This document shows positions 6,217 to 47,848 of a stretch of DNA of 54,888 nucleotides, piece after piece. Positions within the stretch are counted from its first letter, which is position 1. Each line of letters opens with the position of its first letter. Source of the stretch: a virus (lineage: Duplodnaviria; Caudoviricetes); IMG/VR virus record IMGVR_UViG_3300033143_002805, positions 1 through 54,888 of that record; one strand, written 5' to 3'. A program made the position numbers and the translations under genes. Below the pieces are notes generated by a model. It saw nothing but the letters and a program-made list of their open reading frames with translations. It did no database searches and was not told the DNA's origin.

Positions 6217-6558
6217 ATGGACATGAAGATATGTATTCGATGTAAGATTAATCAGCCTACTACAAAGTTTGCTCGACATACAGGTCATAAAGACAATCTC
6301 GATGGACGATGTAAGCAATGTATAAACAAGGCTGGTGTCCTACGACATAAGTTAAGAAAGGTAGCACCACCAATGCCCGATACTTGCGACTGCTGTAATA
6401 AACCAGCCAAGAAAACTCTCTGCCTAGACCATGATCACGAAACATTAAAATTTCGGGGATGGATATGCGAATATTGTAATAGAGGTATAGGACAATTAGG
6501 TGATACATTGTCGGGCGTTATGAACGCAGTAGCTTACTTGCAAAAAGAGGTTGTATAA
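6217..6558 (+). CDS. Endonuclease VII-type (HNH) endonuclease, likely homing
   Basis: C..C..LCLDHDH..FRGWIC..CNRGIG.LGD. Confidence 0.85.
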   Translation: MDMKICIRCKINQPTTKFARHTGHKDNLDGRCKQCINKAGVLRHKLRKVAPPMPDTCDCCNKPAKKTLCLDHDHETLKFRGWICEYCNRGIGQLGDTLSGVMNAVAYLQKEVV

Positions 6559-20072: not shown

Positions 20073-20485
20073 GTCACTTTCACACAATCAAGAAAGACAA
20101 AGAAACCGACATAGACGAGCGTTCTGTTGAAATTTATACCTTTAAGGGTTCAGAGGACTTTTTAAATCGAGAAAGGTTTCCTCTGCTTTACCATCCCGAA
20201 CCCGAAGACGGAAAAGAGGTAGATATCTTTACTCTTTGGAATGCTTATGCTATAAAAGTTAACACCGGCACCCGCATCCGGTACTATGTAAAACGCGGAA
20301 AGTACGGTAAGCTATTCAATCCGATTGGCTTGTATAGTGAGGGCTCACAACGTAAACAACATCGCCATGCCGGTAAGCCCGCTTGGGAATTTAAAGAAGC
20401 CACTGAGAGAGTATTTACTCTCTACGCTAAGTTCTTACGCAGTAAGAATGCATCTTGGCTAAACAATGCAGAAAGGGAAACCTAA
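20069..20485 (+). CDS. Hypothetical protein
   Basis: ORF coupled to neighbours on both sides. Confidence 0.7.
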   Translation: MSHFHTIKKDKETDIDERSVEIYTFKGSEDFLNRERFPLLYHPEPEDGKEVDIFTLWNAYAIKVNTGTRIRYYVKRGKYGKLFNPIGLYSEGSQRKQHRHAGKPAWEFKEATERVFTLYAKFLRSKNASWLNNAERET

Positions 20486-20829
20486 TGAGCAAAAAAGGAC
20501 GACTAAATAAGTCAGAGAAGTATGTTATTGAGGGAATGTTTGAAGATGGCCACACTTTTGACGAGATAGCTACAGAGACTGGTCGTACTGCGGGCACTAT
20601 AGAAAACCATATCCGTTTGATTGCTGAGGCAGCCAACGGCGAAGACACTGAGGCCGAGAAACCAAAGCGTAAGGGACTCTTTATTCGCGAAACCATGCTC
20701 AAAAAGAACACGGGCGTAAGTATTATGACAGAAGCGGAGTCTTCTAGAGGTGAAATCCCGAAAACTCAAAGTAAAATTAAGAAAAGGTTTCGACCTACGA
20801 TTCATAAGATCGATGAAGATCGAGAGTAA
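20485..20829 (+). CDS. HTH DNA-binding protein
   Basis: GHTFDEIATETGRTAGTIENHI; TAATG coupling. Confidence 0.7.
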   Translation: MSKKGRLNKSEKYVIEGMFEDGHTFDEIATETGRTAGTIENHIRLIAEAANGEDTEAEKPKRKGLFIRETMLKKNTGVSIMTEAESSRGEIPKTQSKIKKRFRPTIHKIDEDRE

Positions 20830-21263
20830 TGGCAAAAGAACAGTCGGATTTAAGTCGCTATCCTTCTCGCTATGCCCCAAGGGGTTGGGTTCACGCTGGA
20901 CAATATGCAGCGGAACTTATTTGTGAGAAGTATGCCAAAACCAAAAACAAAGAACTCCCCCTGCGGTTTTGGGAGTTACCGGATTGGAAGAAGTACTATC
21001 AATATCAGGTCATACTTGCGAGTAGACTGATTAAGAAGTATGGAGAACATCCAGTGATAGCGGCTCTAAATGACAAGCGAACTTACAAGACGTATTCATT
21101 AAGAGGAGGCTGGTTCGTCAAGGTAGTAGAGGACTACCATACTAAGGCCGAGCTTGCTAAGAAGATTGCCCATAAAGTTTCTTATGATTTTTCAGAGAAG
21201 AAAACCTTTGAAAGCAATAACCAAAAGAAATCAGTAATCTCCAAGCTTAGGGACTTAGAATGA
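20829..21263 (+). CDS. Hypothetical protein
   Basis: ORF coupled to neighbours, upstream of the recA-like gene. Confidence 0.7.
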   Translation: MAKEQSDLSRYPSRYAPRGWVHAGQYAAELICEKYAKTKNKELPLRFWELPDWKKYYQYQVILASRLIKKYGEHPVIAALNDKRTYKTYSLRGGWFVKVVEDYHTKAELAKKIAHKVSYDFSEKKTFESNNQKKSVISKLRDLE

Positions 21264-23305
21264 GCAAAGGCGAATTTGCAAAAGACATAGTAAAAGAGTA
21301 TGGCGACGTCCTACATGATGCAGCGTATATCATTGACAATCCGCCAGCTATAATTCCGTTATCACCTAAATTAGACATAGCCTTGGGGGGCGGCGTTCCC
21401 GAAGGCTCTTTGTTTATTATGACTGGTCAAGAAAAAGTAGGAAAAGATCAGCCGTTAGATGCTATGGTGCATACTCCTGTCGGACCCAAGAAAATGGGCG
21501 ATATAAAAGTGGGAGACGAAGTATTGTCTCCTAGTTCTGATAGTGGTATAGCAAAAGTAGTAGGGGTCTTTCCACAAGGACTACAGGATGTTTATCGAGT
21601 TCATTTTTCAGACAGGACTTATACTGACTGCGGACTAAACCATTTATGGCATGTCGCCAACGAGCGATGGAAACAGTCTAAAGTTATTCCATTAAAAGAG
21701 ATCCTGTATGACTCTTTGTTTCGTAAAAACAAGCAGTACAAGACAGCAAAATATTCTGTTCCTATGGTACCCTGTGTCTACGCAACCCAGAAGGTTAGCA
21801 TGCATCCTTATTTGATGGGATGTTTAATTGGAGATGGAACATTAAAAAAGAAAACTGTTTGTATCACCAATATTGATCAAGAGCTACTTGATAGGATACG
21901 TGACATATTAGATCCAGCCTATGAGCTATACCAAGATAAGACTGATCCTATTACATATAGGATTACTCGATTAGATCGTAAATATTCTGCAAAACAAAAA
22001 CATAAATATCTTGAGATGTTAAGAACATATGACTTAGCGGGTGTCAAAAGTAAGTTCAAGTTTATTCCACCAGAATACAAATATAACTCTACGACGGTTA
22101 GATTTGCGATTGTTCGTGGACTTATGGATACCGATGGAACCGTAGATAAGAAAGGTAAGGTGTCTTTTTCAAGCTCGTCTTTGTTGCTGGCTGAAGATCT
22201 TGCAGAAGTAGTTAGGTCTCTAGGATATAAATGTAAACTATTTAAACGCTTTACCACATGCAATGGTAAAAAATTTAAGTCCTATTTATGTTATATCTCA
22301 GGGCCTCGTCTATCGGAATTATTTAAACTTACTAGAAAACGGGCGAGATGTAAGCCACGATCATATACCGCTCATAGAAAAATAGTAGACATAGAATATA
22401 TAGAGAAAAAGGAAACTCAATGTATTCAAATAGATAATCAAGGTGGACTTTACTTTACAGACTACCATATCGTTACACATAATACCGTTACTGCCCTGCA
22501 ATTCTGTAAGAATGCACAGAAGGCTAGACTAGAGGATGGTTCTCGACGTAAGATCGTCTACGGGAACATTGAAGGCCGACTTAAGAAAAGAGACTTAGAA
22601 GGAGTGTCTGGTCTCGACTTAGACCCTGACTACTTTCGTATTATAGGATCAACTAAGGGAAATATTCTATCCGGTGAAACGTATCTGTCTATCATTGATA
22701 ATATAGTCCACCAAATTCCCCATGCTGTAGCAGTGATTGATTCATTCTCGGCATTGGCATCAGAGAAAGAATTGACAGACGACATTAAAGATTCACAAGT
22801 AGCAGTCATGCAAAAATTTATCGCTAAGTTCACTCGTCGGTTTGCTAATGTCTTACCGATTAACCGCGTAACTCTTGTAGGTGTCACTCACATTATGGCA
22901 AACATTGGTGCTATCGGCCATGCTAAAAAGAGGGTGGAGAAATCCGGCTTTGCTTTAAAGTATGCACAGGACGTGAAGCTGTTTGCTACACACAAGAAGC
23001 CTATGATGCGTGGGGATCAACAAATTGGGCAAGAGATTCATTGGATCGTAGAAAACACCGCGACCAATACCCCTCCTGGCCAGAAGGTAATCAGCTATAT
23101 GAAATATGGTCGTGGCATCTGGGAAGAATACGAGCTTGCAGAAATAGCAAAAGACTTTGGTATCATCCAAGGTAAAAGCTGGTTTACCCTTCCAGGTACT
23201 GATAAAAAAATACAAGGCATGATTAATGTGGCAGCATATCTAGAAGAAGAGCCTTCTGCTTATGAAGACATTAACCAACAGGTACGAGAACTAACAGGAC
23301 TATGA
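21260..23305 (+). CDS. recA: RecA/UvsX-like recombinase containing an intein
   Basis: LDIALGGGVPEG, Walker A GQEKVGK|T interrupted by the intein, Walker B AVIDSFSAL, SGFALKY. Confidence 0.85.
   Translation: MSKGEFAKDIVKEYGDVLHDAAYIIDNPPAIIPLSPKLDIALGGGVPEGSLFIMTGQEKVGKDQPLDAMVHTPVGPKKMGDIKVGDEVLSPSSDSGIAKVVGVFPQGLQDVYRVHFSDRTYTDCGLNHLWHVANERWKQSKVIPLKEILYDSLFRKNKQYKTAKYSVPMVPCVYATQKVSMHPYLMGCLIGDGTLKKKTVCITNIDQELLDRIRDILDPAYELYQDKTDPITYRITRLDRKYSAKQKHKYLEMLRTYDLAGVKSKFKFIPPEYKYNSTTVRFAIVRGLMDTDGTVDKKGKVSFSSSSLLLAEDLAEVVRSLGYKCKLFKRFTTCNGKKFKSYLCYISGPRLSELFKLTRKRARCKPRSYTAHRKIVDIEYIEKKETQCIQIDNQGGLYFTDYHIVTHNTVTALQFCKNAQKARLEDGSRRKIVYGNIEGRLKKRDLEGVSGLDLDPDYFRIIGSTKGNILSGETYLSIIDNIVHQIPHAVAVIDSFSALASEKELTDDIKDSQVAVMQKFIAKFTRRFANVLPINRVTLVGVTHIMANIGAIGHAKKRVEKSGFALKYAQDVKLFATHKKPMMRGDQQIGQEIHWIVENTATNTPPGQKVISYMKYGRGIWEEYELAEIAKDFGIIQGKSWFTLPGTDKKIQGMINVAAYLEEEPSAYEDINQQVRELTGL
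21446..22483 (+). mobile_element. Class 3-type intein with LAGLIDADG endonuclease (346 aa)
   Basis: Starts DQPLDAMVHTP; block B HLW; GCLIGDG and GLMDTDG; block F TQCI; ends VTHN|T. Confidence 0.9.
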
Positions 23306-23712
23306 AAATCCGTGACTTAAACGGGGAGAAAGTAGACTGGAAACCGAATGGCCAGATTATCACAGCAAGCGATACACGCAGTCGGTCCCAATTACACCTA
23401 GTCGCCAGAAAACTTCTCTATGACCTCTTTCCTACCCTACCTATTCTTGAGGAGGTGGCTATCCCCATTCGCAGGGGAACAACTCAATACTTTGACTTCT
23501 TTCTTACAGGAGTCAAGGTGGCTGTCGAGGTACATGGACAACAACACTTCAAGTTCAATAGCCACTTCCACGCCTCAATGTCAGAATTTCTACGGCAACG
23601 CAATAGAGATGATGACAAGCGGGAATGGTGTGAAGTCAATAATATCACATTATTAGAATTGCCTTATAACGAAAAGATCGAAGAATGGACACAAACAATC
23701 CAGAGCAGGTGA
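23302..23712 (+). CDS. Vsr/DUF559-like PD-(D/E)xK endonuclease
   Basis: FDFF..AVEVHGQQHF..RD..K..WC. Confidence 0.75.
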   Translation: MKIRDLNGEKVDWKPNGQIITASDTRSRSQLHLVARKLLYDLFPTLPILEEVAIPIRRGTTQYFDFFLTGVKVAVEVHGQQHFKFNSHFHASMSEFLRQRNRDDDKREWCEVNNITLLELPYNEKIEEWTQTIQSR

Positions 23713-28361: not shown

Positions 28362-30362
28362 ATGGGTATCCCTATAATCTTCTTTCGTAGCAGTTCGTTT
28401 AATTGCCACAGATTCTGTCCGATGCAATTTTATGCCGAGTATACATTAGGCATGAGGGGACCATCAAATAAGAAAGCAGATAAAGGGACTATCGTTCATA
28501 AAATACTGGAGATATGTGCTTTATGCAAAAAGGCTTTGCAAGATGATATCCCCGAGATAGAAGACGAGGAGATCGGGGCAGTACTCACTGATAACTATGA
28601 CCCAGAATATATGTCCTCGATTGCTTCTAGGGTATATCACCACTATACCGCTGATCTGACACATCATAGCTGGGGTGAAAAAGACTTTAAGGATTGTGTT
28701 AACTGGACCTGGAAGGCTCTAAAGTATAACGACGGAATGTTCGATCCACGTTACCGTAACGTGGTTGATGCCGAACCTCACTTCAACTTTGAGCTACCCT
28801 TCGATTGGGCCGAATATGATTATCCTGAGCAAGGACTCAAGGGAAAACTCGGACTCAAGGGTACAATTGACTTGATCACTGACCTGGGCGATGGCGTTTA
28901 CGAAGTGGTCGATTGGAAGGGGTTGCCTACCGATACTCCTATTCCAACAATCGAGGGTTGGAAAACAATGGGAACATTGACAATAAATGATATTGTCTTC
29001 GATAAAGACGGTAATCAAACTAAGGTTGTTGGCAAGTCTAAAAAAAGCTACAAAGAATGTTATGAAATTGAATTTGATGATAAAACTAAAGCCATCTGTG
29101 ATTATGAGCATCTATGGCTGCTAGACAATGATGACGTGGTAGATGCTCCGAATTTAAAGGTTGGTGACAAGATTGACGTGGCAGGTCCACTCGATACTGA
29201 CTACGTAGACTTACCTATAGATCCATACGTGCTGGGTGCTTGGCTTGGCGATGGCCGAAACCGTAGTATGGAAATTACGTCTGGTGATAGCTTTATATTC
29301 AATGAAATAGAAGATCGAGGCTATCAGGCAGGAACAGATATTAATCACTCAACGTCAGATTGTCGTACTAGTACTATTTTGGCTCAAACCCATAATCTAA
29401 GAAAACTAAATCTGTTACATAACAAACATATCCCCTTGGTATATCTGAGAGCTTCATACTCTCAAAGACTAGACTTGCTTAGAGGACTAATGGATACCGA
29501 TGGCAATGTGAACAGCGTCAGGAAACAAGCTGTGTTTACGACCTGTAATAAAAAGTTGTCGAATGATGTGAAAGAGCTACTACTGAGTCTTGGACAAAGG
29601 GTTAATCAATCTACGATAGTTAGAGATACAAACTTTAAAAAGAACGTAACAGTTTATCCTCTAGCGTTTCGACCCCTAAACCTTAACCCGTTTTTAATGC
29701 CTAGAAAATCGGACAGGATTAATGCCGACTGGGGTCCAGGTCGATCAAATAAGCGTATGATTAAGAAAATAACCAAGTTAGCTACCAATCTAGAAACTCA
29801 ATGCATTATGGTAGATAGCCCATCCAATACTTATCTTTGTACTAAAAATATGATCCCTACTCACAATACAGGCAGGCGGCTAGATTGGGCGACAGGTAAG
29901 ACCAAGGATCAGGTAAAGCTATTTTCTGATCCCCAACTCAGACTTTACCACTATGCTGTTAAGCAGATGTATCCTCACGTACACAGCTTCCTCATTACTA
30001 TATATTTTATTAACGATGGTGGAGCGTTCACTGTTCATTTTCAAGATTCAGACCTAGAAAAGACAGAAGCAATTATTAAGCGTCGGTTTGAAGCTATTCG
30101 AGATACCCAGCAGCCATTGCGAATCAAAGAGACTGACCCCAAGCAAACATGGAAATGTCACAAGCTATGTCATGCTGGCATGACTACGTTTGAGGACACT
30201 CATGTTCAGTCTATTGAACGCTATGGTAAGCCAATGAGCAAGTGCGATCAGATGAAACAGGTAATAGCTCAGAAGGGTATCGAGTGGGTTACTAAAAACT
30301 ATGCCCACCCTGATCATAAGCATGGGTCATATGGAGAGGGTGGTGGGAAGGTGCAACCGTAA
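28362..30362 (+). CDS. Cas4-like PD-(D/E)xK nuclease containing an intein
   Basis: CP..F, GTIVH, GTIDL, VVDWK|TG, QL.LY, C-terminal Cys cluster. Confidence 0.85.
   Translation: MGIPIIFFRSSSFNCHRFCPMQFYAEYTLGMRGPSNKKADKGTIVHKILEICALCKKALQDDIPEIEDEEIGAVLTDNYDPEYMSSIASRVYHHYTADLTHHSWGEKDFKDCVNWTWKALKYNDGMFDPRYRNVVDAEPHFNFELPFDWAEYDYPEQGLKGKLGLKGTIDLITDLGDGVYEVVDWKGLPTDTPIPTIEGWKTMGTLTINDIVFDKDGNQTKVVGKSKKSYKECYEIEFDDKTKAICDYEHLWLLDNDDVVDAPNLKVGDKIDVAGPLDTDYVDLPIDPYVLGAWLGDGRNRSMEITSGDSFIFNEIEDRGYQAGTDINHSTSDCRTSTILAQTHNLRKLNLLHNKHIPLVYLRASYSQRLDLLRGLMDTDGNVNSVRKQAVFTTCNKKLSNDVKELLLSLGQRVNQSTIVRDTNFKKNVTVYPLAFRPLNLNPFLMPRKSDRINADWGPGRSNKRMIKKITKLATNLETQCIMVDSPSNTYLCTKNMIPTHNTGRRLDWATGKTKDQVKLFSDPQLRLYHYAVKQMYPHVHSFLITIYFINDGGAFTVHFQDSDLEKTEAIIKRRFEAIRDTQQPLRIKETDPKQTWKCHKLCHAGMTTFEDTHVQSIERYGKPMSKCDQMKQVIAQKGIEWVTKNYAHPDHKHGSYGEGGGKVQP
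28920..29867 (+). mobile_element. Class 3-type intein with LAGLIDADG endonuclease (316 aa)
   Basis: Starts GLPTDTPIPT; EHLW; GAWLGDG and GLMDTDG; TQCI; ends PTHN|T. Confidence 0.9.
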
Positions 30363-30364
30363 AT

Positions 30365-30931
30365 ATGGATAAGCAAAGTGATAGGTGGTATGCCGAAACA
30401 GCAAGACATAATAAGCATTGGAATGATAAAGAAAAGGTTTATTTAAAAAAGAACTACACTAAGCTTAGTATAGATGAGTTAATGGAAGATATGGGCCGTA
30501 CCGCTCGCTCAATTCATATGGCAGCTTATAAGTTAGGGATCAGTCGTGAAAAAATCTTGGTGATAGATGGTACTAAGAAATGTTCAACATGCCTTAAAAT
30601 TTTACCTATTGGTGAGTTTCATCTATCTTCTAATAATAAAGTTACAGGACTACGTTCTGACTGTAAGGATTGCGTTCGAAATCAGACCTATCTTAGAAAA
30701 TATGGTATAACTCTTAAACAATATGAATCTATGTTAAAAGATCAAAATCACAAATGTTATATTTGTAATAATAAAAGAAATGGAGAAATTGTATTTAATA
30801 TCGATCATTGTCATACTACGGGCAAGATTCGTAAGATACTATGTAATGGCTGCAACCGAGCCTTGGGCTTTTTTTTAGATCGTTCTGACTGGATGCGAAG
30901 AGGTGCTAACTATGTGGAGGAATATAGCTAA
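30365..30931 (+). CDS. Endonuclease VII-type homing endonuclease
   Basis: KYGIT..Y..ML..Q...C.IC, IDHCH.TGKIR..LC..CN..LG. Confidence 0.88.
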   Translation: MDKQSDRWYAETARHNKHWNDKEKVYLKKNYTKLSIDELMEDMGRTARSIHMAAYKLGISREKILVIDGTKKCSTCLKILPIGEFHLSSNNKVTGLRSDCKDCVRNQTYLRKYGITLKQYESMLKDQNHKCYICNNKRNGEIVFNIDHCHTTGKIRKILCNGCNRALGFFLDRSDWMRRGANYVEEYS

Positions 30932-32823
30932 TGAAAACATACATACCACTCCACTGCCACTCCGAGTACAGTCTATTAGATGGACTATCTAAATGTCAAG
31001 CTATAGTAGAGCGTACCCTGGCTATTGGTGCCACGGCTTGTGCTCTAACAGATCACGGTAGCGTGTCTGGTGCTGTAGACTTTGCTGGCAAGATGAAAGA
31101 GAAAGGCTTGAAGCCTATCTTGGGCTCTGAGTTCTATGTATGTCGTGGTCTAGTAACGCAGAAAGATAAAGAAAATCGCCCGCTAGATCACCAAGTAATA
31201 CTAGCTAAGAATCATCAAGGCTGGAAAGATTTACTAGGCCTTACTTCCTTCGCGAATAAAAAAGAACACAGCTACTATAAGCCGCGTCTTGATATTGACG
31301 CTATAGCTAAAGCTGGCAGTCAAAAAAACCTTATATCATTCAGCGGTCACTTAGGGTCTATCTTAGCCAATGCTATTACTGATGGAGATAGACTTGATCC
31401 CGACTGGATGAAAAAGGGTATTGCATGTTCAAAGAACTTAGAGAACATATTCGGCAAAGGTAACTTCTTCATTGAGATTCAGCTTATTGACTCAAAGATA
31501 AATATCTTCGCAGGAGTAGTCGCTAAGGCTTTGAGACAGATCGCGGTCAAAACCGGCATTCCCTGTCTCGCTACACCCGACGCTCACTACTGCTCTAGAG
31601 ACGACGCAGAGGATCAACAGGTGTTGCTCTGCACGAATTTTAAAAAGAGTATAGGGCAAGTACACCGAGAATTAAAACAGGGCACGGCAAACAACACCCT
31701 GGCTACATTTTTCAAGTCGAACAACTATCACATCCCATCATATGAGGACATGATTGAGTTTCACACCGAAGCAGAGTTAGTGAACACACGAGTTGTTGAG
31801 GACATGTGCGAGAACTACAATATCTTACGTTCTCCTGATCCTCCCAAGTTTTCGTGTCCTAAAGGTATGGACCCAAATGAGTACTTGAGATATCTATGCC
31901 GCACAGGATGGGCAAGTAGAATGAGTCATATTGATAGTGACTCTGATAAATTTCCATCCTATGGAGAACGAATTAATCTTGAACTAGACATATTTACTAG
32001 TATAGGTTTATCTAGTTACTTCTTAATTGTAGATGACATACTTAGATTTACACGCAGTCGTGGCTATCTTACTGGCCCTGGACGTGGATCGAGTGCTGGC
32101 TGTATGGTATCCTACTTGTTAGGAATCACTCAGATCGAACCCATCAGATACAACCTTATCTTCGAACGATTCTATAATGCTGGACGTAATACGCCCGGCA
32201 AGATATCGTGGCCGGATATTGATTTCGATGTTCCTAAAGCTGCAAGGGATGAAATTGTCGAATACGTCCGCAATAAGTACGGAGCAGATAATGTAGCTCA
32301 GATTGTGACATTCCAAACCCTCAAGGGGCGGGCCTCACTTAAGCGAGTTATGAGTGCGAGAGGCAACATATCTTTCGATGAGCAGAACGCGATCACTAAG
32401 AACATTGTGGATGAGAGCAAGATCGCGGACGAGCTGGGCGACATCAAGGCCGAGTATGGTATCTCGTCCGTCATCCTCTGGGCTTTGGAAAATAACTCTG
32501 GCAAGCTTAAAGAGTGGTGTACAATTGGAGAAGGAGGTAAGCTAGAAGGTCGTATGGCTAAAATTTTTGAACAAGCCATTAGGCTAGAGGGAACTAAGAT
32601 TATCTCGGGTAAGCACGCTGCGGGCATTGTTATTTCGGCCCAACCGATTAGTGAATCCTGTCCGATGGTCTTAGATAAACAGGGGCAATATCAACTGGCC
32701 GGATTTGAAGGGCCAAGTTGCGAGGATGTTGGGCTACTTAAGCTGGACTGTCTCGGACTTTCTGCACTAGACAAACTTATGGACGCGGCCAAGATCGCGT
32801 CGGGAGAAGATGATGTCGACTAG
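30931..32823 (+). CDS. dnaE: DNA polymerase III alpha, N-terminal half (PHP + palm)
   Basis: LHCHSEYSLLDG, TDHG, GPGRGSSAG, PDIDFD, KHAAG; ends shortly after KLDCLGL. Confidence 0.92.
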   Translation: MKTYIPLHCHSEYSLLDGLSKCQAIVERTLAIGATACALTDHGSVSGAVDFAGKMKEKGLKPILGSEFYVCRGLVTQKDKENRPLDHQVILAKNHQGWKDLLGLTSFANKKEHSYYKPRLDIDAIAKAGSQKNLISFSGHLGSILANAITDGDRLDPDWMKKGIACSKNLENIFGKGNFFIEIQLIDSKINIFAGVVAKALRQIAVKTGIPCLATPDAHYCSRDDAEDQQVLLCTNFKKSIGQVHRELKQGTANNTLATFFKSNNYHIPSYEDMIEFHTEAELVNTRVVEDMCENYNILRSPDPPKFSCPKGMDPNEYLRYLCRTGWASRMSHIDSDSDKFPSYGERINLELDIFTSIGLSSYFLIVDDILRFTRSRGYLTGPGRGSSAGCMVSYLLGITQIEPIRYNLIFERFYNAGRNTPGKISWPDIDFDVPKAARDEIVEYVRNKYGADNVAQIVTFQTLKGRASLKRVMSARGNISFDEQNAITKNIVDESKIADELGDIKAEYGISSVILWALENNSGKLKEWCTIGEGGKLEGRMAKIFEQAIRLEGTKIISGKHAAGIVISAQPISESCPMVLDKQGQYQLAGFEGPSCEDVGLLKLDCLGLSALDKLMDAAKIASGEDDVD

Positions 32824-33081: not shown

Positions 33082-33756
33082 ATGAAAAATAGTAGATGGT
33101 TTATCTGTTTCGATTTTGAGACAGACGGCAAAAAAGCAGAAGAATGCAGTCCCGTGGAACTAGCGGCTGTTCCTATCGATCCAGAGACGCTAGAAATAAG
33201 GCGGGCGTGTGCTTTTAGTACAGTCATTCGTCCACCTGGGATAGACAAGGAAGACTATTTCGACGATAAGAAAGTCGAGACGATTAACTGGCACGCAAAG
33301 CAGGCGGGATGTACCTTTGATGATATCGTAGAAAAATGGAAGGGCGGTATGGCTCAGAAAACCGCGTGGAAAAACTTTTGTTCCTATTGTTCCAAATACA
33401 ATGTTGACAAGAGACCAGGACAATGGTATCCTCAGCCCATACCTGTGGGCTACAATATTCTTGGCTACGACATGATCATAGCTGAACGACTAGCGGAGAA
33501 GCATAAGGCTAAGGTGCCGTTTTCTCAGGTGACACGAGTGGATATCTTTGACATGATCTTCACTTGGTTCGAAAATCTAGATGAACCATCTGACTTTAAA
33601 ATGGATACTTTACGTAAGTTTTTTGGAATTAAGTCCGAGGGAAAAGCACACTCGGCAATAGTAGATGTGTTTGAAGAGGCTGAGATCTTTGTTAAGTTCA
33701 TGAAGTTTCAGCGTAGACAAGCTAGTGTTAAAAAATTCAAAGGAAGTTTCGCATGA
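33082..33756 (+). CDS. DEDDh 3'-5' exonuclease (DnaQ-like)
   Basis: FDFETDG, GYN..YD, HSAIVD. Confidence 0.88.
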   Translation: MKNSRWFICFDFETDGKKAEECSPVELAAVPIDPETLEIRRACAFSTVIRPPGIDKEDYFDDKKVETINWHAKQAGCTFDDIVEKWKGGMAQKTAWKNFCSYCSKYNVDKRPGQWYPQPIPVGYNILGYDMIIAERLAEKHKAKVPFSQVTRVDIFDMIFTWFENLDEPSDFKMDTLRKFFGIKSEGKAHSAIVDVFEEAEIFVKFMKFQRRQASVKKFKGSFA

Positions 33757-33757
33757 C

Positions 33758-34111
33758 TCAAGGCCAGTTCACAAAGCCCAGTGTCCACAACCAATGCACC
33801 ATGGCAGTCCAATAGAGACATGTACCAGCGACTAGAAACGAGAACCACTTCCACTTTTTCCAGTTACATAGATATATGAAGAGCATTGTATACATACTGA
33901 TACGTGAAATCCAGAGGGCATTATAGATACCAATGAATTTAATACAATAGCTCATTGGAAGGAATGTTTCCCTCTGCCAATTATTACCAATTATTTCCCG
34001 TGTTAGGATCATGTCAATCGTATGAATCACTAGCAACAGAACAACAAAGAACAACGAGATAAGCCATGATGGAGACTTGTACTCTTTGGGTCGCATACAT
34101 GTAGAAATCAT
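33758..34111 (-). CDS. Membrane protein, DUF5658-like
   Basis: Three hydrophobic segments, D..LT..E..P pattern; fills a gap on the opposite strand. Confidence 0.6.
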   Translation of the reverse strand: MISTCMRPKEYKSPSWLISLFFVVLLLVIHTIDMILTREIIGNNWQRETFLPMSYCIKFIGIYNALWISRISMYTMLFIYLCNWKKWKWFSFLVAGTCLYWTAMVHWLWTLGFVNWP

Positions 34112-34230
34112 TTTATTGGCCTCGTACGTGGTTAATGATATGCTACAGTATAATACACAATAACGGGGGTTTTCAGAAAAAACTCAAGTTTATGATAAAA
34201 TAGCAGAAATTTACCTTTAGGAGCTCTCTG

Positions 34231-34692
34231 ATGAACCTTGTTATTGTTTCAGGATACTTCAACCCCTTGCACACAGGACATCTTGACTACCTTGAGGGTG
34301 CAAGTCGTCTAGGTGATTATCTAATTGTGATAGTTAACAATGACGAGCAAGTCAGGATTAAGGGAAGCATACCCTTCCTGTCCCTTAAGGATCGTTTAAG
34401 AATAGTTCAAGCTCTAACCTGCGTGGGTAGGTCGGTGGCATCTATTGATACCGATGGCTCAGTTGTAAAAACCATAGAAGAGCTCGCCAAGCTGTGGAAG
34501 CAAGCGGGCTCCGATGGGACGGCGACACAAATTTCTGAAGATGGAATAATTTTTGCGAACGGTGGAGACCGAAACTCTAATGACATTCCAGAGTATTCCC
34601 TATGTGAAAAATATGGTATTCAAATGGCGTTCAATATTGGGGGAGGAAAAACCCAATCATCAAGCGGACTTATTAAGAAGGTTAAGCAATAG
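34231..34692 (+). CDS. Cytidylyltransferase-family (TagD/RfaE-like) nucleotidyltransferase
   Basis: SGYFNPLHTGH (HxGH), FANGGDR, KTQSSS. Confidence 0.88.
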   Translation: MNLVIVSGYFNPLHTGHLDYLEGASRLGDYLIVIVNNDEQVRIKGSIPFLSLKDRLRIVQALTCVGRSVASIDTDGSVVKTIEELAKLWKQAGSDGTATQISEDGIIFANGGDRNSNDIPEYSLCEKYGIQMAFNIGGGKTQSSSGLIKKVKQ

Positions 34693-34701
34693 GGGTTGAC
34701 A

Positions 34702-34821
34702 ATGGAAGACAAGCCTACATTATCGGATATTGTTTTGGGAGTGATTGGAATTATTCTTATAATTGCTCTTGCATGGGATATTGTTTGTTGGAGTATCTTT
34801 CTGGGAGGATGGAATGAGTAA
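34702..34821 (+). CDS. 39-aa single-TM peptide (not in ORF track)
   Basis: MEDKPTLSDIVLGVIGIILIIALAWDIVCWSIFLGGWNE; starts in motif copy 1. Confidence 0.6.
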   Translation: MEDKPTLSDIVLGVIGIILIIALAWDIVCWSIFLGGWNE

Positions 34822-35050
34822 TCAAAGAGGTCATAACTACTTCACTTTAGTAGAGTCGCTAGAGTTGTATATAGATAATTTATCTCATTTAAACAAAAAT
34901 ATGAAGATAGACAGAGAAGTCAAACTGCCTTCCCCAGTAGGACGCTTCCCAGTTTATGGTGGCGAGACAGTAAATGATGAAATCAAGTTGGCTAAGGGTC
35001 GTCTTAAAATAACAAGAGAGAGATTGTTTATAAATAAAAAGGAACAATGA
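34814..35050 (+). CDS. Hypothetical protein
   Basis: GGAGG RBS before ATG 34814. Confidence 0.6.
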   Translation: MSNQRGHNYFTLVESLELYIDNLSHLNKNMKIDREVKLPSPVGRFPVYGGETVNDEIKLAKGRLKITRERLFINKKEQ

Positions 35051-35051
35051 G

Positions 35052-35597
35052 ATGAAAATTGGGTTAAAGAAAATTCCGAAGGCCGTCGCCCTATGGGCCA
35101 TAGTAATCATGGGTGCATTCTTGATCTTTATGACTGCCCTAAGTATTGGTGAAGACAAGGGTCAGCGGATAGAAAGATCGCATCAGGCACTGGAAATTAC
35201 CAAGGTGGTTGTTGCCAACACAGAAATCATAGTTGCACATGGGCAGCTTTCTCAGCAGATGAGACAAAATTCAGATATTATAATGAGGTATCATCACTAC
35301 TTAGATGGTCATAATCCATCTGTTAAAAAGGTGGTATTATGTCCAGAGTGCCTGACAGAGGAAGACCGCCCAGGCAAGATCGAAGCATATTTTGTTACCG
35401 AATTTGAAGATCACCCAGAGGAATTGCCAGAAACATTTGAACAACTCTTACAGGACTGCGAAGAAATAAAGACTGGTATTCGAGCCGCCCGGTTCAGTTT
35501 GATTCTTCAAGCAGAAACATTACAACGTACATTAGATAAACTTAGAACTCAAACTTCTCCGGTGGTCGAAAATATCTTTGAAAGAATTGATAAATGA
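35052..35597 (+). CDS. Membrane-anchored coiled-coil protein
   Basis: N-terminal TM; ends VVENIFERIDK in motif copy 2. Confidence 0.7.
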   Translation: MKIGLKKIPKAVALWAIVIMGAFLIFMTALSIGEDKGQRIERSHQALEITKVVVANTEIIVAHGQLSQQMRQNSDIIMRYHHYLDGHNPSVKKVVLCPECLTEEDRPGKIEAYFVTEFEDHPEELPETFEQLLQDCEEIKTGIRAARFSLILQAETLQRTLDKLRTQTSPVVENIFERIDK

Positions 35598-35836
35598 GCT
35601 ATCGAATAACAGACGAGCAGGAAACTTTAGAAACTGTCAATTTCCACATGTTGACCGCCATGCAAAATGAATTTGTTTTTAATATTGACGAAGAGCCAAC
35701 AATTTGCAAAAGAATTCAGATTGGTGATTTGATTTGTGAAAACGACGCTTATAGTTGTCATACTACGTCAAGAGTAGATCAAGATGGGTTTGTTAAGGTT
35801 ATTGTTACGACAAAGGGGTGGGGAGTTGACAAATGA
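35594..35836 (+). CDS. Hypothetical cassette protein
   Basis: Starts and stops within junction motifs; ends GVDK. Confidence 0.7.
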   Translation: MSYRITDEQETLETVNFHMLTAMQNEFVFNIDEEPTICKRIQIGDLICENDAYSCHTTSRVDQDGFVKVIVTTKGWGVDK

Positions 35837-36030
35837 GTTCTGACGAACATAATTTAGAAAATCCATTATCAAATGTTGTAGTATCCCACATTGTGCCGCC
35901 GAATTTAGACCTTGCAACCCACCCATACGCAAAATATCTAAATTTTGGTGAGCCGATAGAGTGTATTTTATCTATTTTAGATAATGAAGAACAAGAGTTT
36001 TGGAAAAATATGGAGTTGACAAATGACTGA
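35833..36030 (+). CDS. Hypothetical cassette protein (MSSDE start)
   Basis: Starts in motif copy 3. Confidence 0.65.
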   Translation: MSSDEHNLENPLSNVVVSHIVPPNLDLATHPYAKYLNFGEPIECILSILDNEEQEFWKNMELTND

Positions 36031-36190
36031 CGATAGATTGATAACTCTTTACGATAAAAACAAGAATCCAAAGTTAAAAGTTAGATTGACAGAAGAAGGA
36101 TACGAAAAATATCAGGCAGGAGAAAAGTGGGATAGTGATTGGATTGAAATAATGATGGACATTGAACGTATAAAACTCGCAGAGTTTTGA
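36023..36190 (+). CDS. 55-aa cassette protein (not in ORF track)
   Basis: MTDDRLITLYDKNKNPKLKVRLTEEGYEKY..; starts in motif copy 4. Confidence 0.65.
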   Translation: MTDDRLITLYDKNKNPKLKVRLTEEGYEKYQAGEKWDSDWIEIMMDIERIKLAEF

Positions 36191-36202
36191 AGGAGTTGAC
36201 AA

Positions 36203-36631
36203 ATGAGGGAAATTAAATTTAGGGCGTGGCATAAGAAAAAGCATAAAATGCTTTATAATGTTCAAAAAACCGAAATGGTACATCATGCAATGTCTAGTAT
36301 GGCAGGAGAACCGTCTGGTTTAGACCATTACTTTAATGAAGAGTGGTATGAACTTATGCAATACACCGGACTCAAAGACAAGAACGGTAAGGATATTTAT
36401 GAGGGCGATATTTTAGGCTACCCAACTGATACCAACGATAAGAAACTAACAGAAGTCAGATGGGCAAAAGCATACTCTGGAGAGCAGTGGTGTGAATTTG
36501 AAATACGAAATTATGCTGGAAAAGATGTGAAGTCAGATGAGTCAGATGAGCCAGACGATTTTTATGGCGGCATATCTCAAGCCGAATATAAAATAGTCGT
36601 CGGAAATATCTTTGAAAGAGTTGATAAATGA
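36203..36631 (+). CDS. YopX family protein
   Basis: MREIKFRAW, LMQYTGLKDKNGKDIYEGDI, VVGNIFE. Confidence 0.9.
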   Translation: MREIKFRAWHKKKHKMLYNVQKTEMVHHAMSSMAGEPSGLDHYFNEEWYELMQYTGLKDKNGKDIYEGDILGYPTDTNDKKLTEVRWAKAYSGEQWCEFEIRNYAGKDVKSDESDEPDDFYGGISQAEYKIVVGNIFERVDK

Positions 36632-36810
36632 GTTCTGACGAACTAAAAGAAAATACTTTTTATAGTATTAATACCCAATATACAAAAGGGAGATTCCAAT
36701 ACGCCGGGGAAGTAGATTTTCAGGGCGTTAAGAAATATCTTTTTCAATGTTTCGCTATTGATATGTATTTAACAGAAGACGAATTAGTCTGTGTGGGGGT
36801 TGACAAATGA
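36628..36810 (+). CDS. Hypothetical cassette protein (MSSDE..GVDK)
   Basis: Bounded by motif copies 6 and 7. Confidence 0.7.
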   Translation: MSSDELKENTFYSINTQYTKGRFQYAGEVDFQGVKKYLFQCFAIDMYLTEDELVCVGVDK

Positions 36811-36980
36811 GTTCTGACGAACATATTATAGAAGATAAAGATTGGTCTTGTATGGACGAAATTTATACAGACTTTTATAGATGTCCCAAGTGTGGAGAAG
36901 ATATGATTATGGTTGCAGCCTTATACTGTCAGGGCTGTGGTGTTAAACTTGAGTGGAATTTGTCTGGTGATAGGGGTTGA
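36807..36980 (+). CDS. 57-aa Zn-ribbon cassette protein (not in ORF track)
   Basis: MSSDEHII..YRCPKCG..YCQGCGVKLEW. Confidence 0.7.
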   Translation: MSSDEHIIEDKDWSCMDEIYTDFYRCPKCGEDMIMVAALYCQGCGVKLEWNLSGDRG

Positions 36981-36983
36981 TAA

Positions 36984-37512
36984 ATGAGACTAGACCACAT
37001 AGCATATCGAGTCCCTAACAGGGACGAGACTGTAGAGCATCTCAACAAAATGTTTGGGTATCATGTTGAAGAAGAATTTACTATTGACTTTGATAATGGC
37101 TCCAAGGCAAAGTGTAAGGCACTTACCGCATTGACTGATATGCACGAATTTATAGAGGGAATGCCAGAAGTTTTTGTGAATGCCAGAAGTTTTTGTGTCA
37201 GAGGGAAGTCCCGGCTCCATAGTAGAGAAGTGGATTCAAAACACTCCCAACGGTCAGGGTGGCATCCACCACCTAGCCTATAAGGTTGACGACATAGATC
37301 CTATCGTAAAGCAATGGAAAGATAGGGGCATAGAGTTCCTAACTGAGGATGTTATTGACTGCCCCGATGACGACCTGAGACAGATATTTACTAAGCCGCA
37401 ACCGCTGCTTGGCGGCGTTATTATCGAACTGATTGAGCGTGGAGATAAGGGATTCTGCCAGAACTCTGTTAAAAACTTAATGGAAGCTACAGATGAAAAT
37501 AGAGACAAGTAA
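36984..37512 (+). pseudogene. VOC/glyoxalase (HPPD-like) protein frameshifted by a 19-bp tandem duplication
   Basis: RLDHIAYRV in the first part; GGIHHLAY.V.DI, LRQIFT, IELIER in the second; removing one repeat unit joins the frames (169 aa). Confidence 0.8.
37159..37196. repeat. 19-bp tandem duplication GAATGCCAGAAGTTTTTGT x2
   Basis: Exact adjacent copies at 37159-37177 and 37178-37196. Confidence 0.95.
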
Positions 37513-37554
37513 AAGCCTGTGTACGTTTTTCGCCTTAACCAACTTAGGACTGTT

Positions 37555-37564
37555 CGCATATAAT
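37555..37564 (+). promoter_or_regulatory. Candidate promoter CGCATATAAT
   Basis: Intergenic, upstream of dnaE-C. Confidence 0.45.
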
Positions 37565-37641
37565 GGACTAGCATTGAATTTATATATTGGAATAGTTATG
37601 GTTGTGTGGGTTGTTGTACTAGAGTTTATAGGGAAACATTA

Positions 37642-39267
37642 ATGAAGGAAACAGTAACATTTGATTGCGGCTGTACCTTTAATGTTAACGAGAAAGGTCT
37701 GCCAGTATTCGAACCATATCTAGATAAGATCAGACTGACCTGTCCTGCTACTTGGGACATGATCTGCGAAGGTAACACTAAGGGCGTCTTTCAGCTAGAG
37801 TCACAGCTAGGTCAAAGTATGGCCTCTCAAACTGCTCCTCGACATATGGAAGAGCTGTCAGACCTCATTAGCATCATGCGACCTGGATGTCTTGAGGCTA
37901 TAGTAGAGGGAAAGAACCTGTCCACTCACTACATAGACCGCAAAGCTGGACGTGATTCAGTTAGCTACTTTCACCCTGCCTTGGAGCCAATCCTTGAGAA
38001 TACATACGGCATCCTGGTATATCAAGAGCAGGCCCTAGGCATTGCTAGGCAAATCGCGGGGTATAATTTACAGGAAGCGGAGCTACTGAGGAAAGCCATT
38101 GGTAAGAAGAAGATTCAACTTATGGCTAAGGTTAAAGCCGAGTTCTTTGACAAGGCTGTGGGCTTCGGAATCATTAATCTAGAAGAAGCAGAGGAAATAT
38201 TTAGCTGGATTGAGAAATCTCAACGGTACTCATTTAATAAAAGTCACGCTATAGCCTATGCTCATAACGGCTACCTAACAGCTTTTACAAAAGCCCACTT
38301 TCCCCTGGCCTTTTTTACCGCTTGGTTGCGACACGCGAAGGGAAAGCAAAACCCGCACATGGAAATTCAAGACCTTGTGAACAATGCTCGCCTGATGGAC
38401 ATTGATATCGTTCCTCCGAGTATTTTGAACATGAATCGAGTATTTAAATTAATTGATAACAAACCTACGTACGGAATTACTGACATAAAAAGAGTAGGCA
38501 GTTCAGTTTTCGACCAAATTCGTGGTGTAATAAAGAACAACAAATATGATTTAGCGGGATTTACCTGGGACGTGTTCCTGATGAAGATGGGGCGAATCAT
38601 TAAATCTGACTCCTTTAAAGCTATAATATTGGCTGGGGCCTTAGACTGCTATAAAGTTTCTCGTATGAAGATGATATATGATCTGGAGTTGTATCGAGAG
38701 TTTAGAGATTCTGACCGTAAATACCTAGAGACTGTAAAATGCAGTACATTTAAAGACGGCCTAGAACAAATCTTAACCAAAAAGATACCTCACGAAAGAC
38801 GCACAGCTCACACAGACCGCTTTATTGAACTTACCCGTAGCTCCATGAGAGCGTTAGACAACCCGCCTTATCAACTGGTAGACAGCCCCGCCTGGATAGC
38901 TAAGCAGGAGCGAGAGTATCTAGGTATCGCCTTGACATGTACTGAGATTGACGAGCACGATATCGGTGACGCCAACTGTACCTGTCGAGATTATGCACAA
39001 GGATTTAGTTCTCACTCTATTGCTATAGCTGTTAAGGTAGATGACTTGCGAGAATGGAAAATCAAAAAAGGAAAGAGCAAAGGAGAAACAATGGCTTTCT
39101 TAAAAGTGAGTGATGGAACATGCTCCTTAGATAACGTAACTATGTTCCCAGAAGCTTGGGAGAGGTACTGTCAAGACATACGTATTGGAAGTTTGCTATT
39201 GCTGCGAGGACAACGCGATAAGAATCGTGGAAGTTTTCTAGTAATGCGTGTTAAAAAGTTAACGTAA
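37642..39267 (+). CDS. dnaE: DNA polymerase III alpha, C-terminal half (fingers, HhH, OB)
   Basis: GNTKGVFQLES, RPG, TYGILVYQEQ, LRKAIGKK, YSFNKSHA..Y, MAFL..SD. Confidence 0.92.
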   Translation: MKETVTFDCGCTFNVNEKGLPVFEPYLDKIRLTCPATWDMICEGNTKGVFQLESQLGQSMASQTAPRHMEELSDLISIMRPGCLEAIVEGKNLSTHYIDRKAGRDSVSYFHPALEPILENTYGILVYQEQALGIARQIAGYNLQEAELLRKAIGKKKIQLMAKVKAEFFDKAVGFGIINLEEAEEIFSWIEKSQRYSFNKSHAIAYAHNGYLTAFTKAHFPLAFFTAWLRHAKGKQNPHMEIQDLVNNARLMDIDIVPPSILNMNRVFKLIDNKPTYGITDIKRVGSSVFDQIRGVIKNNKYDLAGFTWDVFLMKMGRIIKSDSFKAIILAGALDCYKVSRMKMIYDLELYREFRDSDRKYLETVKCSTFKDGLEQILTKKIPHERRTAHTDRFIELTRSSMRALDNPPYQLVDSPAWIAKQEREYLGIALTCTEIDEHDIGDANCTCRDYAQGFSSHSIAIAVKVDDLREWKIKKGKSKGETMAFLKVSDGTCSLDNVTMFPEAWERYCQDIRIGSLLLLRGQRDKNRGSFLVMRVKKLT

Positions 39268-39288: not shown

Positions 39289-39735
39289 ATGGATAAATTA
39301 ATTGAGCAACACATGCCCCTTGTGGCATCCATAGTCAATAATTTTGAACCCAAAAACAATACCGAACGAGAGGACTTACTAGATGCGGGACGAATTGGGC
39401 TCTGGAAAGCATTGCGAAAGTTCGATCCCGCTCATGGCAGTATGGTCTCTACCTATGCGTGGCGACCTATTCAATGGGCCATTATCCGTGAAATTAAAAA
39501 CAGACAGCGTAACGTGTCTCTAGATGATGTTGCACCCCCTTCTGTTAGAACCCCCGAAAGGATATGGGAGTACTACCCTAGCGACATGACTGACCAAGAA
39601 AAGCAGTTAATTGAGCTGCGATGCGAAGGGTATAAGTTTCGCGAGATATGCGAGATAGTTAATGAGACACCTTCCACGGTAAAAAACCGCTTCTATAAGG
39701 CGATAAGGAAAATCAAAGAAGGAAACCATGCATAG
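39289..39735 (+). CDS. Sigma-70 family sigma factor (regions 2 and 4)
   Basis: LVASIV..EDLL..G.IGLWKA..KFDP..STYA; region 4 HTH GYKFREI..TVKNR. Confidence 0.88.
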   Translation: MDKLIEQHMPLVASIVNNFEPKNNTEREDLLDAGRIGLWKALRKFDPAHGSMVSTYAWRPIQWAIIREIKNRQRNVSLDDVAPPSVRTPERIWEYYPSDMTDQEKQLIELRCEGYKFREICEIVNETPSTVKNRFYKAIRKIKEGNHA

Positions 39736-46620: not shown

Positions 46621-47063
46621 TTGGTATAATAGTTGATGAGATTGTTAACTCCCCTCAAAATTACTTCTTATTTAAAACATTAAATGAGCTGTCAAAATCT
46701 CATGACTGCTACCTTTTCACAAGCGGAATAAAAGAACTGCCTATAGAGAACAAATTCTCTATCATGCAGCAGCTAGAAGCGTTGCATCATCCTGGTATTT
46801 TAATTAGCACAACAATGCTTAACGCACAGATCGCAGCTAATTCTCTAACCGCGACCAAAAAATACTATTACATATGGAACTTTGAATGGACGATGCTAAA
46901 TCAATTTGCATTTCATCAACTAGATAAAATATTTTACAATGACGATGTAGAACTGATAGCTAACAGTAGTACCCACAACCATCTTCTAACCCAGTTGTTT
47001 AAATCGCCCATAGGTATAGTCTATAACTGGGATCGAAAATCACTGGAGAAGGTAATATTATAA
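46617..47063 (+). CDS. Hypothetical protein, GT N-terminal-like
   Basis: LISTT..KYYYIWNFEW..LIANS pattern. Confidence 0.55.
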   Translation: MIGIIVDEIVNSPQNYFLFKTLNELSKSHDCYLFTSGIKELPIENKFSIMQQLEALHHPGILISTTMLNAQIAANSLTATKKYYYIWNFEWTMLNQFAFHQLDKIFYNDDVELIANSSTHNHLLTQLFKSPIGIVYNWDRKSLEKVIL

Positions 47064-47848
47064 TGGACTTTTTTAATAAAAATGACGAAGAACGACTTGC
47101 AACCTATAATAGCTTCTATCATGATTCTAATATGAGTTGGGCTGAGATTGCCAAGATGGTTGACACCTATCCTAATCGGGTACGTCGTGACGCTATTAAG
47201 CTAGGGATTAAGTCTCGCAATAAGTCCGAGGCCCAAAAAGTAGCCATTTCAGAAGGGCGACATGAGCATCCCACAGAGGGTAAAACTCAATCAAAAGAAA
47301 CTAGAGAGAAAATCAGCATTAGTCAGGGTAAAATATGGGATGATTTGACCGAAAACCAGAGAGAACTAAGGTCCGAGATTGGCCTAGAATCGTGGAATAA
47401 AAAAACCACGCATGAGAAGGCGGACTTCTTTAAAAAGAGCAGCGAGGCGATCCGAGAGGCGTCGAGACATGGGTCTAAAGTAGAGTTGCAGCTATTTGAT
47501 TTGCTGATTCGAGCCGGATATCGAGTGGAGAAGCATAAAGAGCACCTTCTACAGAACGAAAGGTTCCATCTTGACCTCTACGTTCCAGCCGTCAGAACAG
47601 CTATTGAGGTTGACGGACCCCTACACTTTAAGCCTGTCTTTGGAGAAGATAAATTAAAGCGTCGTCAGGCGGCAGATCAACAGAAAAATGGTCTGGTTTT
47701 ATCTGCGGGAATGGTACTTATCAGAGTAAAATTAACTAAGAGAGAATCACAACGCTACCTACGAGATATCTGGAAAAGCGTAGAAGAGATTCTAAACACA
47801 ATAGCGAAGAAGTTCCCACCCAAACATGAAAGGTATTTCGAAATATGA
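47063..47848 (+). CDS. HTH + NUMOD3-like + DUF559/Vsr-like endonuclease
   Basis: SWAEIAK, S.ETREKIS, LDLY..AIEVDGPLH..D..KN. Confidence 0.75.
   Translation: MDFFNKNDEERLATYNSFYHDSNMSWAEIAKMVDTYPNRVRRDAIKLGIKSRNKSEAQKVAISEGRHEHPTEGKTQSKETREKISISQGKIWDDLTENQRELRSEIGLESWNKKTTHEKADFFKKSSEAIREASRHGSKVELQLFDLLIRAGYRVEKHKEHLLQNERFHLDLYVPAVRTAIEVDGPLHFKPVFGEDKLKRRQAADQQKNGLVLSAGMVLIRVKLTKRESQRYLRDIWKSVEEILNTIAKKFPPKHERYFEI

Follow-up and report, generated by a model that had tools for sequence, protein, structure and literature searches.

Why would eight phage genes that are mostly short and unrelated all start within the same short sequence? The question is raised by positions 34692–36987 of IMGVR_UViG_3300033143_002805, an uncultured marine-sediment phage whose entire IMG/VR record (54,888 bp, 42% G+C, estimated completeness 35%) was analyzed here and is called the window. 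Parts of this stretch occur in 20 sequencing runs from 17 studies, labelled as marine sediment, sediment, hydrothermal vent and marine metagenomes. The eight gene starts share the consensus GAAGGAGTTGAYAAATGA, and an initial annotation, made from the letters alone, read the locus as a plug-in site where genes are gained, lost and shuffled. Our analysis supports this view, and the repeat is probably a translational linker of accessory-gene cassettes that doubles as a short-homology crossover site. The features of the locus are listed in Table 1.

A scan of the window with RGTTGAYAAATG, allowing at most one mismatch, returned eight matches, all on the plus strand, and seven of them lie within 35585–36986. 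Shuffled sequence gave an expected number of 1.27 and a maximum of 4, and eight matches were reached in none of 100 shuffles. The junction at 34692 is a variant one base shorter, which escapes this pattern. The eighth match, at 14695, was rejected as a junction because it lies out of frame inside the ribonucleotide reductase gene, where it encodes SVDKW, and has neither GGAG nor ATGA. The motif ends at the ATG of six of the nine called genes in 34600–37100, compared with none of the 69 called elsewhere (78 called genes in total); the start at 36984 bears the motif too, but its gene is absent from this call set. Within the block, four starts (34814, 35052, 37493 and 37642) are without the motif. 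All eight starts given in the initial annotation were recovered with their positions and variants, and its remark that the motif is missing from other gene junctions of the window agrees with the count of 0/69. The description of the cargo as mostly short and unrelated also stands, since a YopX protein, a zinc ribbon, a short hydrophobic peptide and proteins of unassigned function were found. Four of the encoded proteins finish with (V/I)DK and three open with MSSDE, as noted earlier. The upstream genes read the motif in three different frames; therefore, it is conserved as a nucleotide sequence and not as a peptide. No exact repeat in the window is longer than the 27 identical nucleotides that the initial annotation saw in junction copies 3 and 7. 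Between copies 2 and 6, a stretch of 37 nt matches at 92% identity, which explains why p181, a protein without a YopX-profile match, and the YopX protein both end in NIFER(I/V)DK.

The same junction is found in other phage records. A 22-nt pattern comprising the motif and the MSSD head occurs in nine other viral records, and a 24-nt pattern comprising the YopX tail and the motif occurs at 17 loci in 12 viral records. The 24-nt pattern gave no match in 185,579 bacterial and archaeal genomes, which has no bearing on its absence in nature, and thus there is no prophage or host hint. A 16-nt pattern gave at least 120 mostly single matches in each collection, as chance predicts, and was not used for counts. 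Exact copies of an 11-mer number 3, 2, 7, 9, 7, 17, 2, 2, 11, 3, 3, 2, 3 and 5 in records G001–G014, respectively, and a reversed-pattern control gave 0–1 per record. In each record the copies lie on one strand and are clustered in one operon-like array, with two outliers: a copy at 6424 of G014, far from the array, and a copy at the opposite contig end of G001, which is consistent with a circularly permuted contig. G004 and G009 are near-duplicates, as are G002, G007 and G008, and at least 12 arrays are independent. The array-bearing records span 50–160 kb, and G006 has 20 consecutive motif-joined junctions. The cargo of six other arrays (96 proteins) includes 15 YopX proteins, one protein each of Fe–S biosynthesis, GT29, sulfotransferase and RNase T, and one weak zinc finger; 76 proteins have no Pfam family. 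The arrays occupy different sites: that of G001 (a more distant record, 94% complete, with contig ends that form a plausible junction) lies between pieces 3 and 4 of a DnaE gene in four pieces, that of G011 follows RecA, and those of G002 and G004 adjoin a DUF1501 homologue. The window has a DUF1501-family protein as well (1887–3110), 32 kb from its array, and the homologues directly beside the arrays of G002/G008 and G004/G009 share 28–32% amino-acid identity with it. No published description of the motif or of such arrays was found in a search of main texts, mostly outside subscription journals.

A sequence logo of 73 junctions has high information content only from about −14 to +5 around the ATG, which defines a block of ∼20 nt. 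This block consists of a ribosome-binding GGAG, a fixed 7-nt spacer and an ATG that overlaps a TGA stop (ATGA). The Y position of GAAGGAGTTGAYAAATGA is T in 51 and C in 21 of the 73 junctions, and the spacer bases TTGAYAAA are nearly invariant among phages of low core identity. The junction has stops at −6 and +1, at either −15 or −13, and frequently at +5 or +8. Of 63 motif junctions, 53 have all three frames closed between −20 and +13; for the other gene starts of these loci the figure is 52 of 240. The stop that the upstream gene actually uses is at +1 in 40 of the 63; the rest use −17, −15, −13, −6, −3, +5 or +8, and four have no nearby stop. ATGA overlaps generally favour termination–reinitiation. 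TTGAYA resembles a −35 box, but a promoter reading of TTGACA does not hold for the junctions in general, as no conserved −10 box accompanies it (positions +16 to +21 carry 0.02–0.22 bits in the 73 junctions). A −10-like hexamer lies in range at five of the eight window junctions, with scores of 9–11 out of 12, and a consensus promoter scan of the region found 24 promoter-like sites against 17.6 expected (standard deviation 4.5), which is not clearly above shuffles. None of the eight window junctions has a terminator-like site, and their 80-nt folds have z values of −1.24 to +0.95, no better than shuffles. The motif is asymmetric and unstructured.

To describe how the cassettes are distributed, we clustered the array proteins, and the same families were found with different neighbours in different arrays. 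For example, members of the p60 family are present in G001 and, twice, in G003, G001 also has p55, and the order of several other families is permuted among G001, G004, G005 and G006. In 36 blastn high-scoring segment pairs (HSPs) of at least 100 nt between different genomes, 47 of 141 HSP ends inside arrays fall within −20 to +10 of a motif ATG, where 9.9 are expected. Some matches run from motif to motif: a 219-nt cassette shared by G002 and G003 at 98% identity extends from about −14 of one motif to about +4 to +16 of the next, and a 200-nt match between the window and G003, covering p60, begins at −13 relative to one motif ATG and stops at +4 relative to the following one. The cassettes are also more similar than the cores of the phages that carry them. 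The window and G001 share cassettes at 78 and 64% amino-acid identity, compared with 27–40% for nine core proteins; between G002 and G003 one cassette family is 100% identical, whereas the other shared array proteins (YopX paralogues) reach 33–39% and proteins outside the arrays 25–57%. A closely related array, that of G011, matches the window in five blocks of 76–100% nucleotide identity, and this similarity begins exactly at the ATG at 34702. G011 lacks p181 and p65, its YopX gene precedes p55, the reverse of the window, and neighbouring blocks overlap by 16 and 22 nt, the overlaps being the motif. The genes upstream of the G011 array are homologues of 20485–23305 in the window with only 28–39% amino-acid identity. 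Cassettes that are 78–100% identical would, as part of the linker reading considered probable above, move between phages with only ∼30–40% core identity.

Natural variants of the array itself were found in Logan contigs of four sequencing runs, including X2, X6, X8 and X9 (stretches of X9 without contig cover were left out). The X2 contigs reproduce the window order in pieces with 0–2 differences, and a metagenome scan with a 34-nt window string gave one contig, which has the window's own order from p80 to p49. In an X8 contig (depth 25, shorter side 178 nt), 36795 is joined to 36973 with eight shared letters, which removes exactly the zinc-ribbon cassette from motif copy to motif copy. In a further X8 contig (depth 19, side 207), nine other letters connect 35019 with 35587; p181 is gone, as it is from G011, and the result is a canonical TAGGAG junction identical to that of G011, with which loose ends in X6 agree. 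Weaker joints connect 36635 to 36977 (X6, side 32), 36035 to 36195 (X8, side 21) and, backwards, 36975 to 36015 (X8, side 55). Loose ends show further neighbours, with a YopX tail ahead of p55, YopX behind p80, and p60 behind junction 5. Cassette p55 is preceded by p65 in the window, by YopX in G011 and by the zinc-ribbon cassette in an X8 contig. The summed depth in X6 and X8 is 20–45 over 34750–37570 and 1–5 over the exonuclease and DnaE, with a drop after ∼37573; summed depth is only a hint, and this would fit cassettes that are also present in other, more abundant genomes.

The genomic setting also points to insertion. The DNA polymerase III α gene is split in the window, with one half on either side of the array, and all 22 relatives that were found by the C-terminal half (51–66% amino-acid identity) keep this split. 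Their gene order is the same throughout: the N-terminal half, sometimes a small gene, an exonuclease and the C-terminal half, with a sigma factor next in the 20 loci that are long enough. The exonuclease and the C-terminal half are adjacent in most relatives, and seven loci (L008, L011, L017, L022, L023 and L029 among the insert-bearing ones) have unrelated inserts of ∼0.25–2 kb at this boundary, which in the window (33756–37642) holds 3.9 kb. The inserts of the relatives have no common junction sequence. Neither the cassette proteins of the window nor the motif array occurs in the 22 DnaE loci, which contain only scattered single matches to the motif with one mismatch, and five large records of closer core relatives have 0, 0, 1, 0 and 0 exact motif copies, the first of these records being complete with terminal repeats. 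Since the relatives carry other inserts or none, and no array, the exonuclease/DnaE boundary counts as a hot spot of insertion, and the closest core relatives of the window do not have the motif array as an ancestral feature. No cultured relative was found, the best match of the N-terminal half among GenBank phages being 34.6%, and matches of the array DNA are limited to ∼65–75 nt inside the YopX gene. Taken together, gene content and order differ between relatives, indel breakpoints (HSP ends, contig joints and the G011 blocks) fall in the motif and the motif is not equally common at core-gene starts, so the three outcomes named in the initial annotation as contrary to a plug-in locus were not observed.

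We propose the following mechanism for the linker. Each copy would give the upstream gene a stop in any of the three frames, a Shine–Dalgarno (SD) GGAG 7 nt before the next start and the ATG itself, usually in an ATGA overlap with the stop, so that cassettes in any order would be terminated and restarted correctly in one polycistronic message. The arrays are probably one message, because they have one orientation and no intergenic space; in G011, a promoter-like TTGACA-16-TATATT was read by eye upstream of the array. As the same 17–23 nt flank each cassette, they could act as short-homology patches, and a head (MSSDE) or tail (NIFE-VDK) shared by neighbours would lengthen the patch to 27–42 nt. 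General homologous recombination or template switching would cross over in these patches, and single cassettes would be deleted, inserted, reordered or exchanged, both within a genome and between co-infecting, distantly related phages. MSSDE and (E)GVDK in unrelated proteins would then be codons carried along with the linker. Candidate crossover enzymes include the phage's own RecA, a protein encoded in each of the five array-bearing records examined. Other candidates are a PD-(D/E)XK nuclease and endonuclease VII-type proteins, for which the window has genes. The initial annotation had proposed RecA-like or single-strand annealing proteins; the former was found, whereas none of the latter was detected among the 74 window proteins scanned with PHROGs.

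Several observations weigh against the linker as proposed. Two thirds of the HSP ends (94/141) are not near any motif, and the p181 indel has its left end within p78, at a depth of 31 nt, where the window has no motif copy. Three of the joints have short sides (21–32 nt) that can derive from other organisms. The variants from which recombination is read are contigs of different populations, and some records and runs may stem from the same or related samples and are hence not fully independent. Only two RNA runs are listed for the stretch, with small shares, and translational coupling is what we infer from the layout of the junction. Finally, the strict conservation of the spacer is needless for stops, SD pairing or recombination and may hint at an additional sequence-specific function.

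This last point leads to the alternative that survives best, namely that the motif is mainly a cis-regulatory translation-initiation signal of one temporally co-regulated operon, for instance an operator to which a translational repressor or RNase of the phage binds, or a longer site for ribosome docking, with shuffling as a by-product of mosaicism at gene boundaries. We consider it unlikely. It would account for the near-invariance of TTGAYAAA, for the single operon-like array in each record and for the unstructured junction RNA, as expected of an accessible initiation site; moreover, UGAU after GGAG would presumably extend the pairing with the conserved 3′ tail of 16S rRNA. The start-associated sequences (SAS) of mycobacteriophages, as interpreted in PMC3203893, provide a precedent for such an interpretation. 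However, a signal of this kind leaves unexplained why cassettes are 78–100% identical at ∼30–40% core identity, why their distribution among core relatives is patchy and why motif-to-motif joints remove exactly one cassette. The two explanations are not mutually exclusive.

A dedicated mobility system, in which a phage sequence-specific nuclease or mediator recognizes the junction DNA and excises the cassettes, possibly as circles, and inserts them, as in an integron without integrase, seems still harder to sustain. The backward joint from 36975 to 36015 is what a circle or tandem junction would give, but it is equally explained by a variant order, and G011 has such a permutation. The motif is stricter than short-homology recombination requires; however, it is asymmetric and unstructured, unlike attC. 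Two inteins represent active homing elements, and HNH or endonuclease VII-type genes lie among the replication genes (6217–6558, 23302–23712, 30365–30931 and 47063–47848), their scatter suggesting many homing elements in the genome; yet no nuclease gene consistently adjoins the arrays in the regions fetched. Mini-circles of T4-type repeats (PMC2839356) are a precedent. Against a dedicated enzyme, the tyrosine recombinase family PF00589 was found in none of five array-bearing records, two of which are 94 and 98% complete, while the control genomes were all positive, and the same five records gave no serine recombinase. An extended version, in which the linker is the recognition site of an integrase-free system targeted by a nuclease or mediator, circular cassettes re-enter any linker-bearing array and arrays preferentially sit where an essential gene is broken, as in the fragmented DnaE, is speculative and unlikely to be correct. 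If true, unrelated phages of one habitat would share a plug-in pool of accessory genes, perhaps for host takeover or anti-defence.

That the shuffling is an assembly artefact, with co-occurring phages mis-joined at the shared repeat, is very improbable: all comparison sequences are short-read metagenome contigs and the repeat with shared heads or tails reaches 27–42 nt, but no exact repeat of the window exceeds 27 nt, Logan contigs are built from 31-letter words so that the 36795–36973 joint, with its eight shared letters, should be spanned by real reads, the p181-less junction is shared by an IMG/VR record and by contigs of two runs that belong to separate studies, the window order is reproduced by X2 contigs and one metagenome contig, and arrays occur in many records of 50–160 kb.

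We compared the linker with known systems. The closest is the promoter-early stem-loop (PeSL) of T4-type phages, a short conserved repeat on the flanks of ORFans in hyperplastic regions (Arbiol et al., 2010, PMC2839356; Comeau et al., 2014, PMC4122927) and has also been noted around a split DNA polymerase gene (PMC2839356). In both systems indels and replacements between related phages end in the repeats, as seen here in HSP ends, contig joints and G011; general recombination machinery is invoked without an integrase, and the repeat bears expression signals that would let inserts work at once. However, a PeSL is a ∼100-bp intergenic transcription unit with a σ70 promoter and a stem-loop terminator (PMC2839356), whereas the repeat here is ∼20 nt, has neither, takes up no intergenic space and overlaps both coding sequences, with a stop/start overlap at 40/63 junctions. 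The present element is predicted from its sequence to act in translation, through stop, SD and start, in an unrelated, uncultured phage group. Circular excision, a PeSL property, has as its counterpart here only the one backward joint, with its equally good explanation as permuted order. The PeSL analogy drawn in the initial annotation therefore holds for behaviour and not for promoter and stem-loop.

The SAS of Cluster K mycobacteriophages are asymmetric 13-bp repeats with an SD core 3–7 nt before the ATG of non-structural genes (Pope et al., 2011, PMC3203893). The likeness, also suggested at the outset, is one of kind only: both are SD-containing asymmetric repeats in one orientation (here GGAG 7 nt before the ATG), which sometimes hold the upstream stop and go with genes of different families. 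The sequence here is unlike the 13-bp SAS consensus, SAS copies are dispersed over half a genome and not gathered in a contiguous array, and about half of them bear an additional inverted repeat (PMC3203893). In the passages of that paper drawn on here, SAS are discussed as translation signals, with no link to cassette exchange. Integrons also have one-directional arrays of unrelated small cassettes with a repeated separator, variable between relatives. Their cassettes are promoterless and lie behind a common promoter, which may apply here too, given the single orientation, the lack of intergenic space and the promoter-like sequence of G011. This third analogy fails, as the five records have no IntI-type integrase and the repeat is a translation signal and not a folding attC-like inverted repeat. 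In the Botstein–Campbell model, conserved linkers between modules target homologous exchange and ensure placement and regulation (as summarized in PMC2839356). Here too a conserved sequence lies between modules where exchange occurs, and expression would be kept; however, the model was framed for lambdoid phages and modules of several genes, whereas here one small gene forms the unit and a defined 20-nt element with stop, SD and start serves as linker. The element is therefore best read as a functional analogue of T4-type PeSLs and not as a member of the PeSL, integron or SAS families.

The array would thus provide a sharply defined natural example of the linker idea, at the level of the single gene and in translation, not transcription. 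As a model that can be tested, it would show how phages with ∼30% core identity could exchange genes without dead chimeras. In addition, the motif is a search handle for hundreds of accessory ORFans of uncultured phages and for their movement between lineages, and we suggest it for trial in synthetic operons as a compact, frame-independent coupling element.

Table 1. Positions of the array, its flanking genes and a candidate recombination enzyme in the window.
Feature	Coordinates	Strand	Match or remark
RecA with LAGLIDADG intein, candidate recombination enzyme	21260..23305	+	PF00154, PF14528
DNA polymerase III α, N-terminal half	30931..32823	+	phrog_405, profile positions 42–614
Exonuclease gene	33082..33756	+	Between DnaE halves in all 22 relatives
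Cytidylyltransferase-like gene	34231..34692	+	PF01467; also inserted material, unmatched in loci of 22 relatives
Junction 1	34689..34705	+	Variant with one A fewer (TAG stop, GGGG, TTGACA, ATG); shared block starts here
Cassette p39	34702..34821	+	39-residue hydrophobic peptide, no family match, read as membrane segment; 81% amino-acid identity to G011
Cassette p78	34814..35050	+	Function unassigned; start without motif; 86% amino-acid identity to G011
Cassette p181	35052..35597	+	Hydrophobic N-terminus by reading the sequence alone; ends NIFERIDK; variably present
Junction 2	35580..35597	+	AGAATTGATAAATGA; upstream stop overlaps ATG
Cassette p80	35594..35836	+	Function unassigned; 90% amino-acid identity to G011
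Junction 3	35819..35836	+	GGAGTTGACAAATGA
Cassette p65	35833..36030	+	Begins MSSDE; stops in third frame at TGA right after next ATG; missing from G011
Junction 4	36009..36030	+	GGAGTTGACAAATGACTGA
Cassette p55	36023..36190	+	Function unassigned; 78% amino-acid identity to a G001 cassette
Junction 5	36188..36206	+	TGA stop, then AGGAGTTGACAAATG
YopX-family cassette	36203..36631	+	PF09643, E 8e-19, 68.3 bits (cut-off 22.4); phrog_98; ends NIFERVDK
Junction 6	36614..36631	+	AGAGTTGATAAATGA
Cassette p60	36628..36810	+	Begins MSSDE; family F5; 64–80% amino-acid identity to G001 and G003 members
Junction 7	36793..36810	+	GGGGTTGACAAATGA
Zinc-ribbon cassette	36807..36980	+	Begins MSSDE; weak zinc-ribbon Pfam matches; phrog_10714
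Junction 8	36970..36987	+	GGGGTTGATAAATGA; upstream gene ends at TGA inside TTGA
Glyoxalase/VOC-type gene, frame-shifted	36984..37512	+	PF13669 on both halves
p49, small hydrophobic protein	37493..37642	+	Last gene of inserted block; without motif
DNA polymerase III α, C-terminal half	37642..39267	+	PF17657; phrog_405 positions 622–1054

The frame shift in the glyoxalase/VOC-type gene is a perfect 19-nt tandem duplication (37160–37178 and 37179–37197). Contigs of runs X2, X6 and X8 do not have the additional 19 nt; the gene is therefore unbroken elsewhere, and either a rare variant or an error of assembly may account for the duplication. Aligned with the window, metagenome contig L308 takes up 19 more columns than its query span, and we read this as the same 19-nt gap.

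Some further observations concern neighbouring or related genes. Like RecA, the PD-(D/E)XK nuclease (28362–30362) has a LAGLIDADG-type insertion, probably an intein, while the RecA homologue of G011 (361 residues) has no intein. A small sigma factor gene (39289–39735) lies beside the C-terminal DnaE half and is kept in relatives whose loci reach there, and the protein at 20485–20829 has a helix-turn-helix resembling sigma region 4. On the minus strand, an open reading frame of 1776 residues without a Pfam or PHROG match (49315–54645) runs towards the record end. In G011 (L306, 4932–5254), the YopX gene is broken by a stop after 37 codons, at the border of the 100%-identical and 76%-identical blocks, which resembles a recombination scar within the gene. 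In the YopX gene of the window, a 9-nt unit encoding SDE is repeated at 36531–36548, and one unit is missing in one X6 contig.

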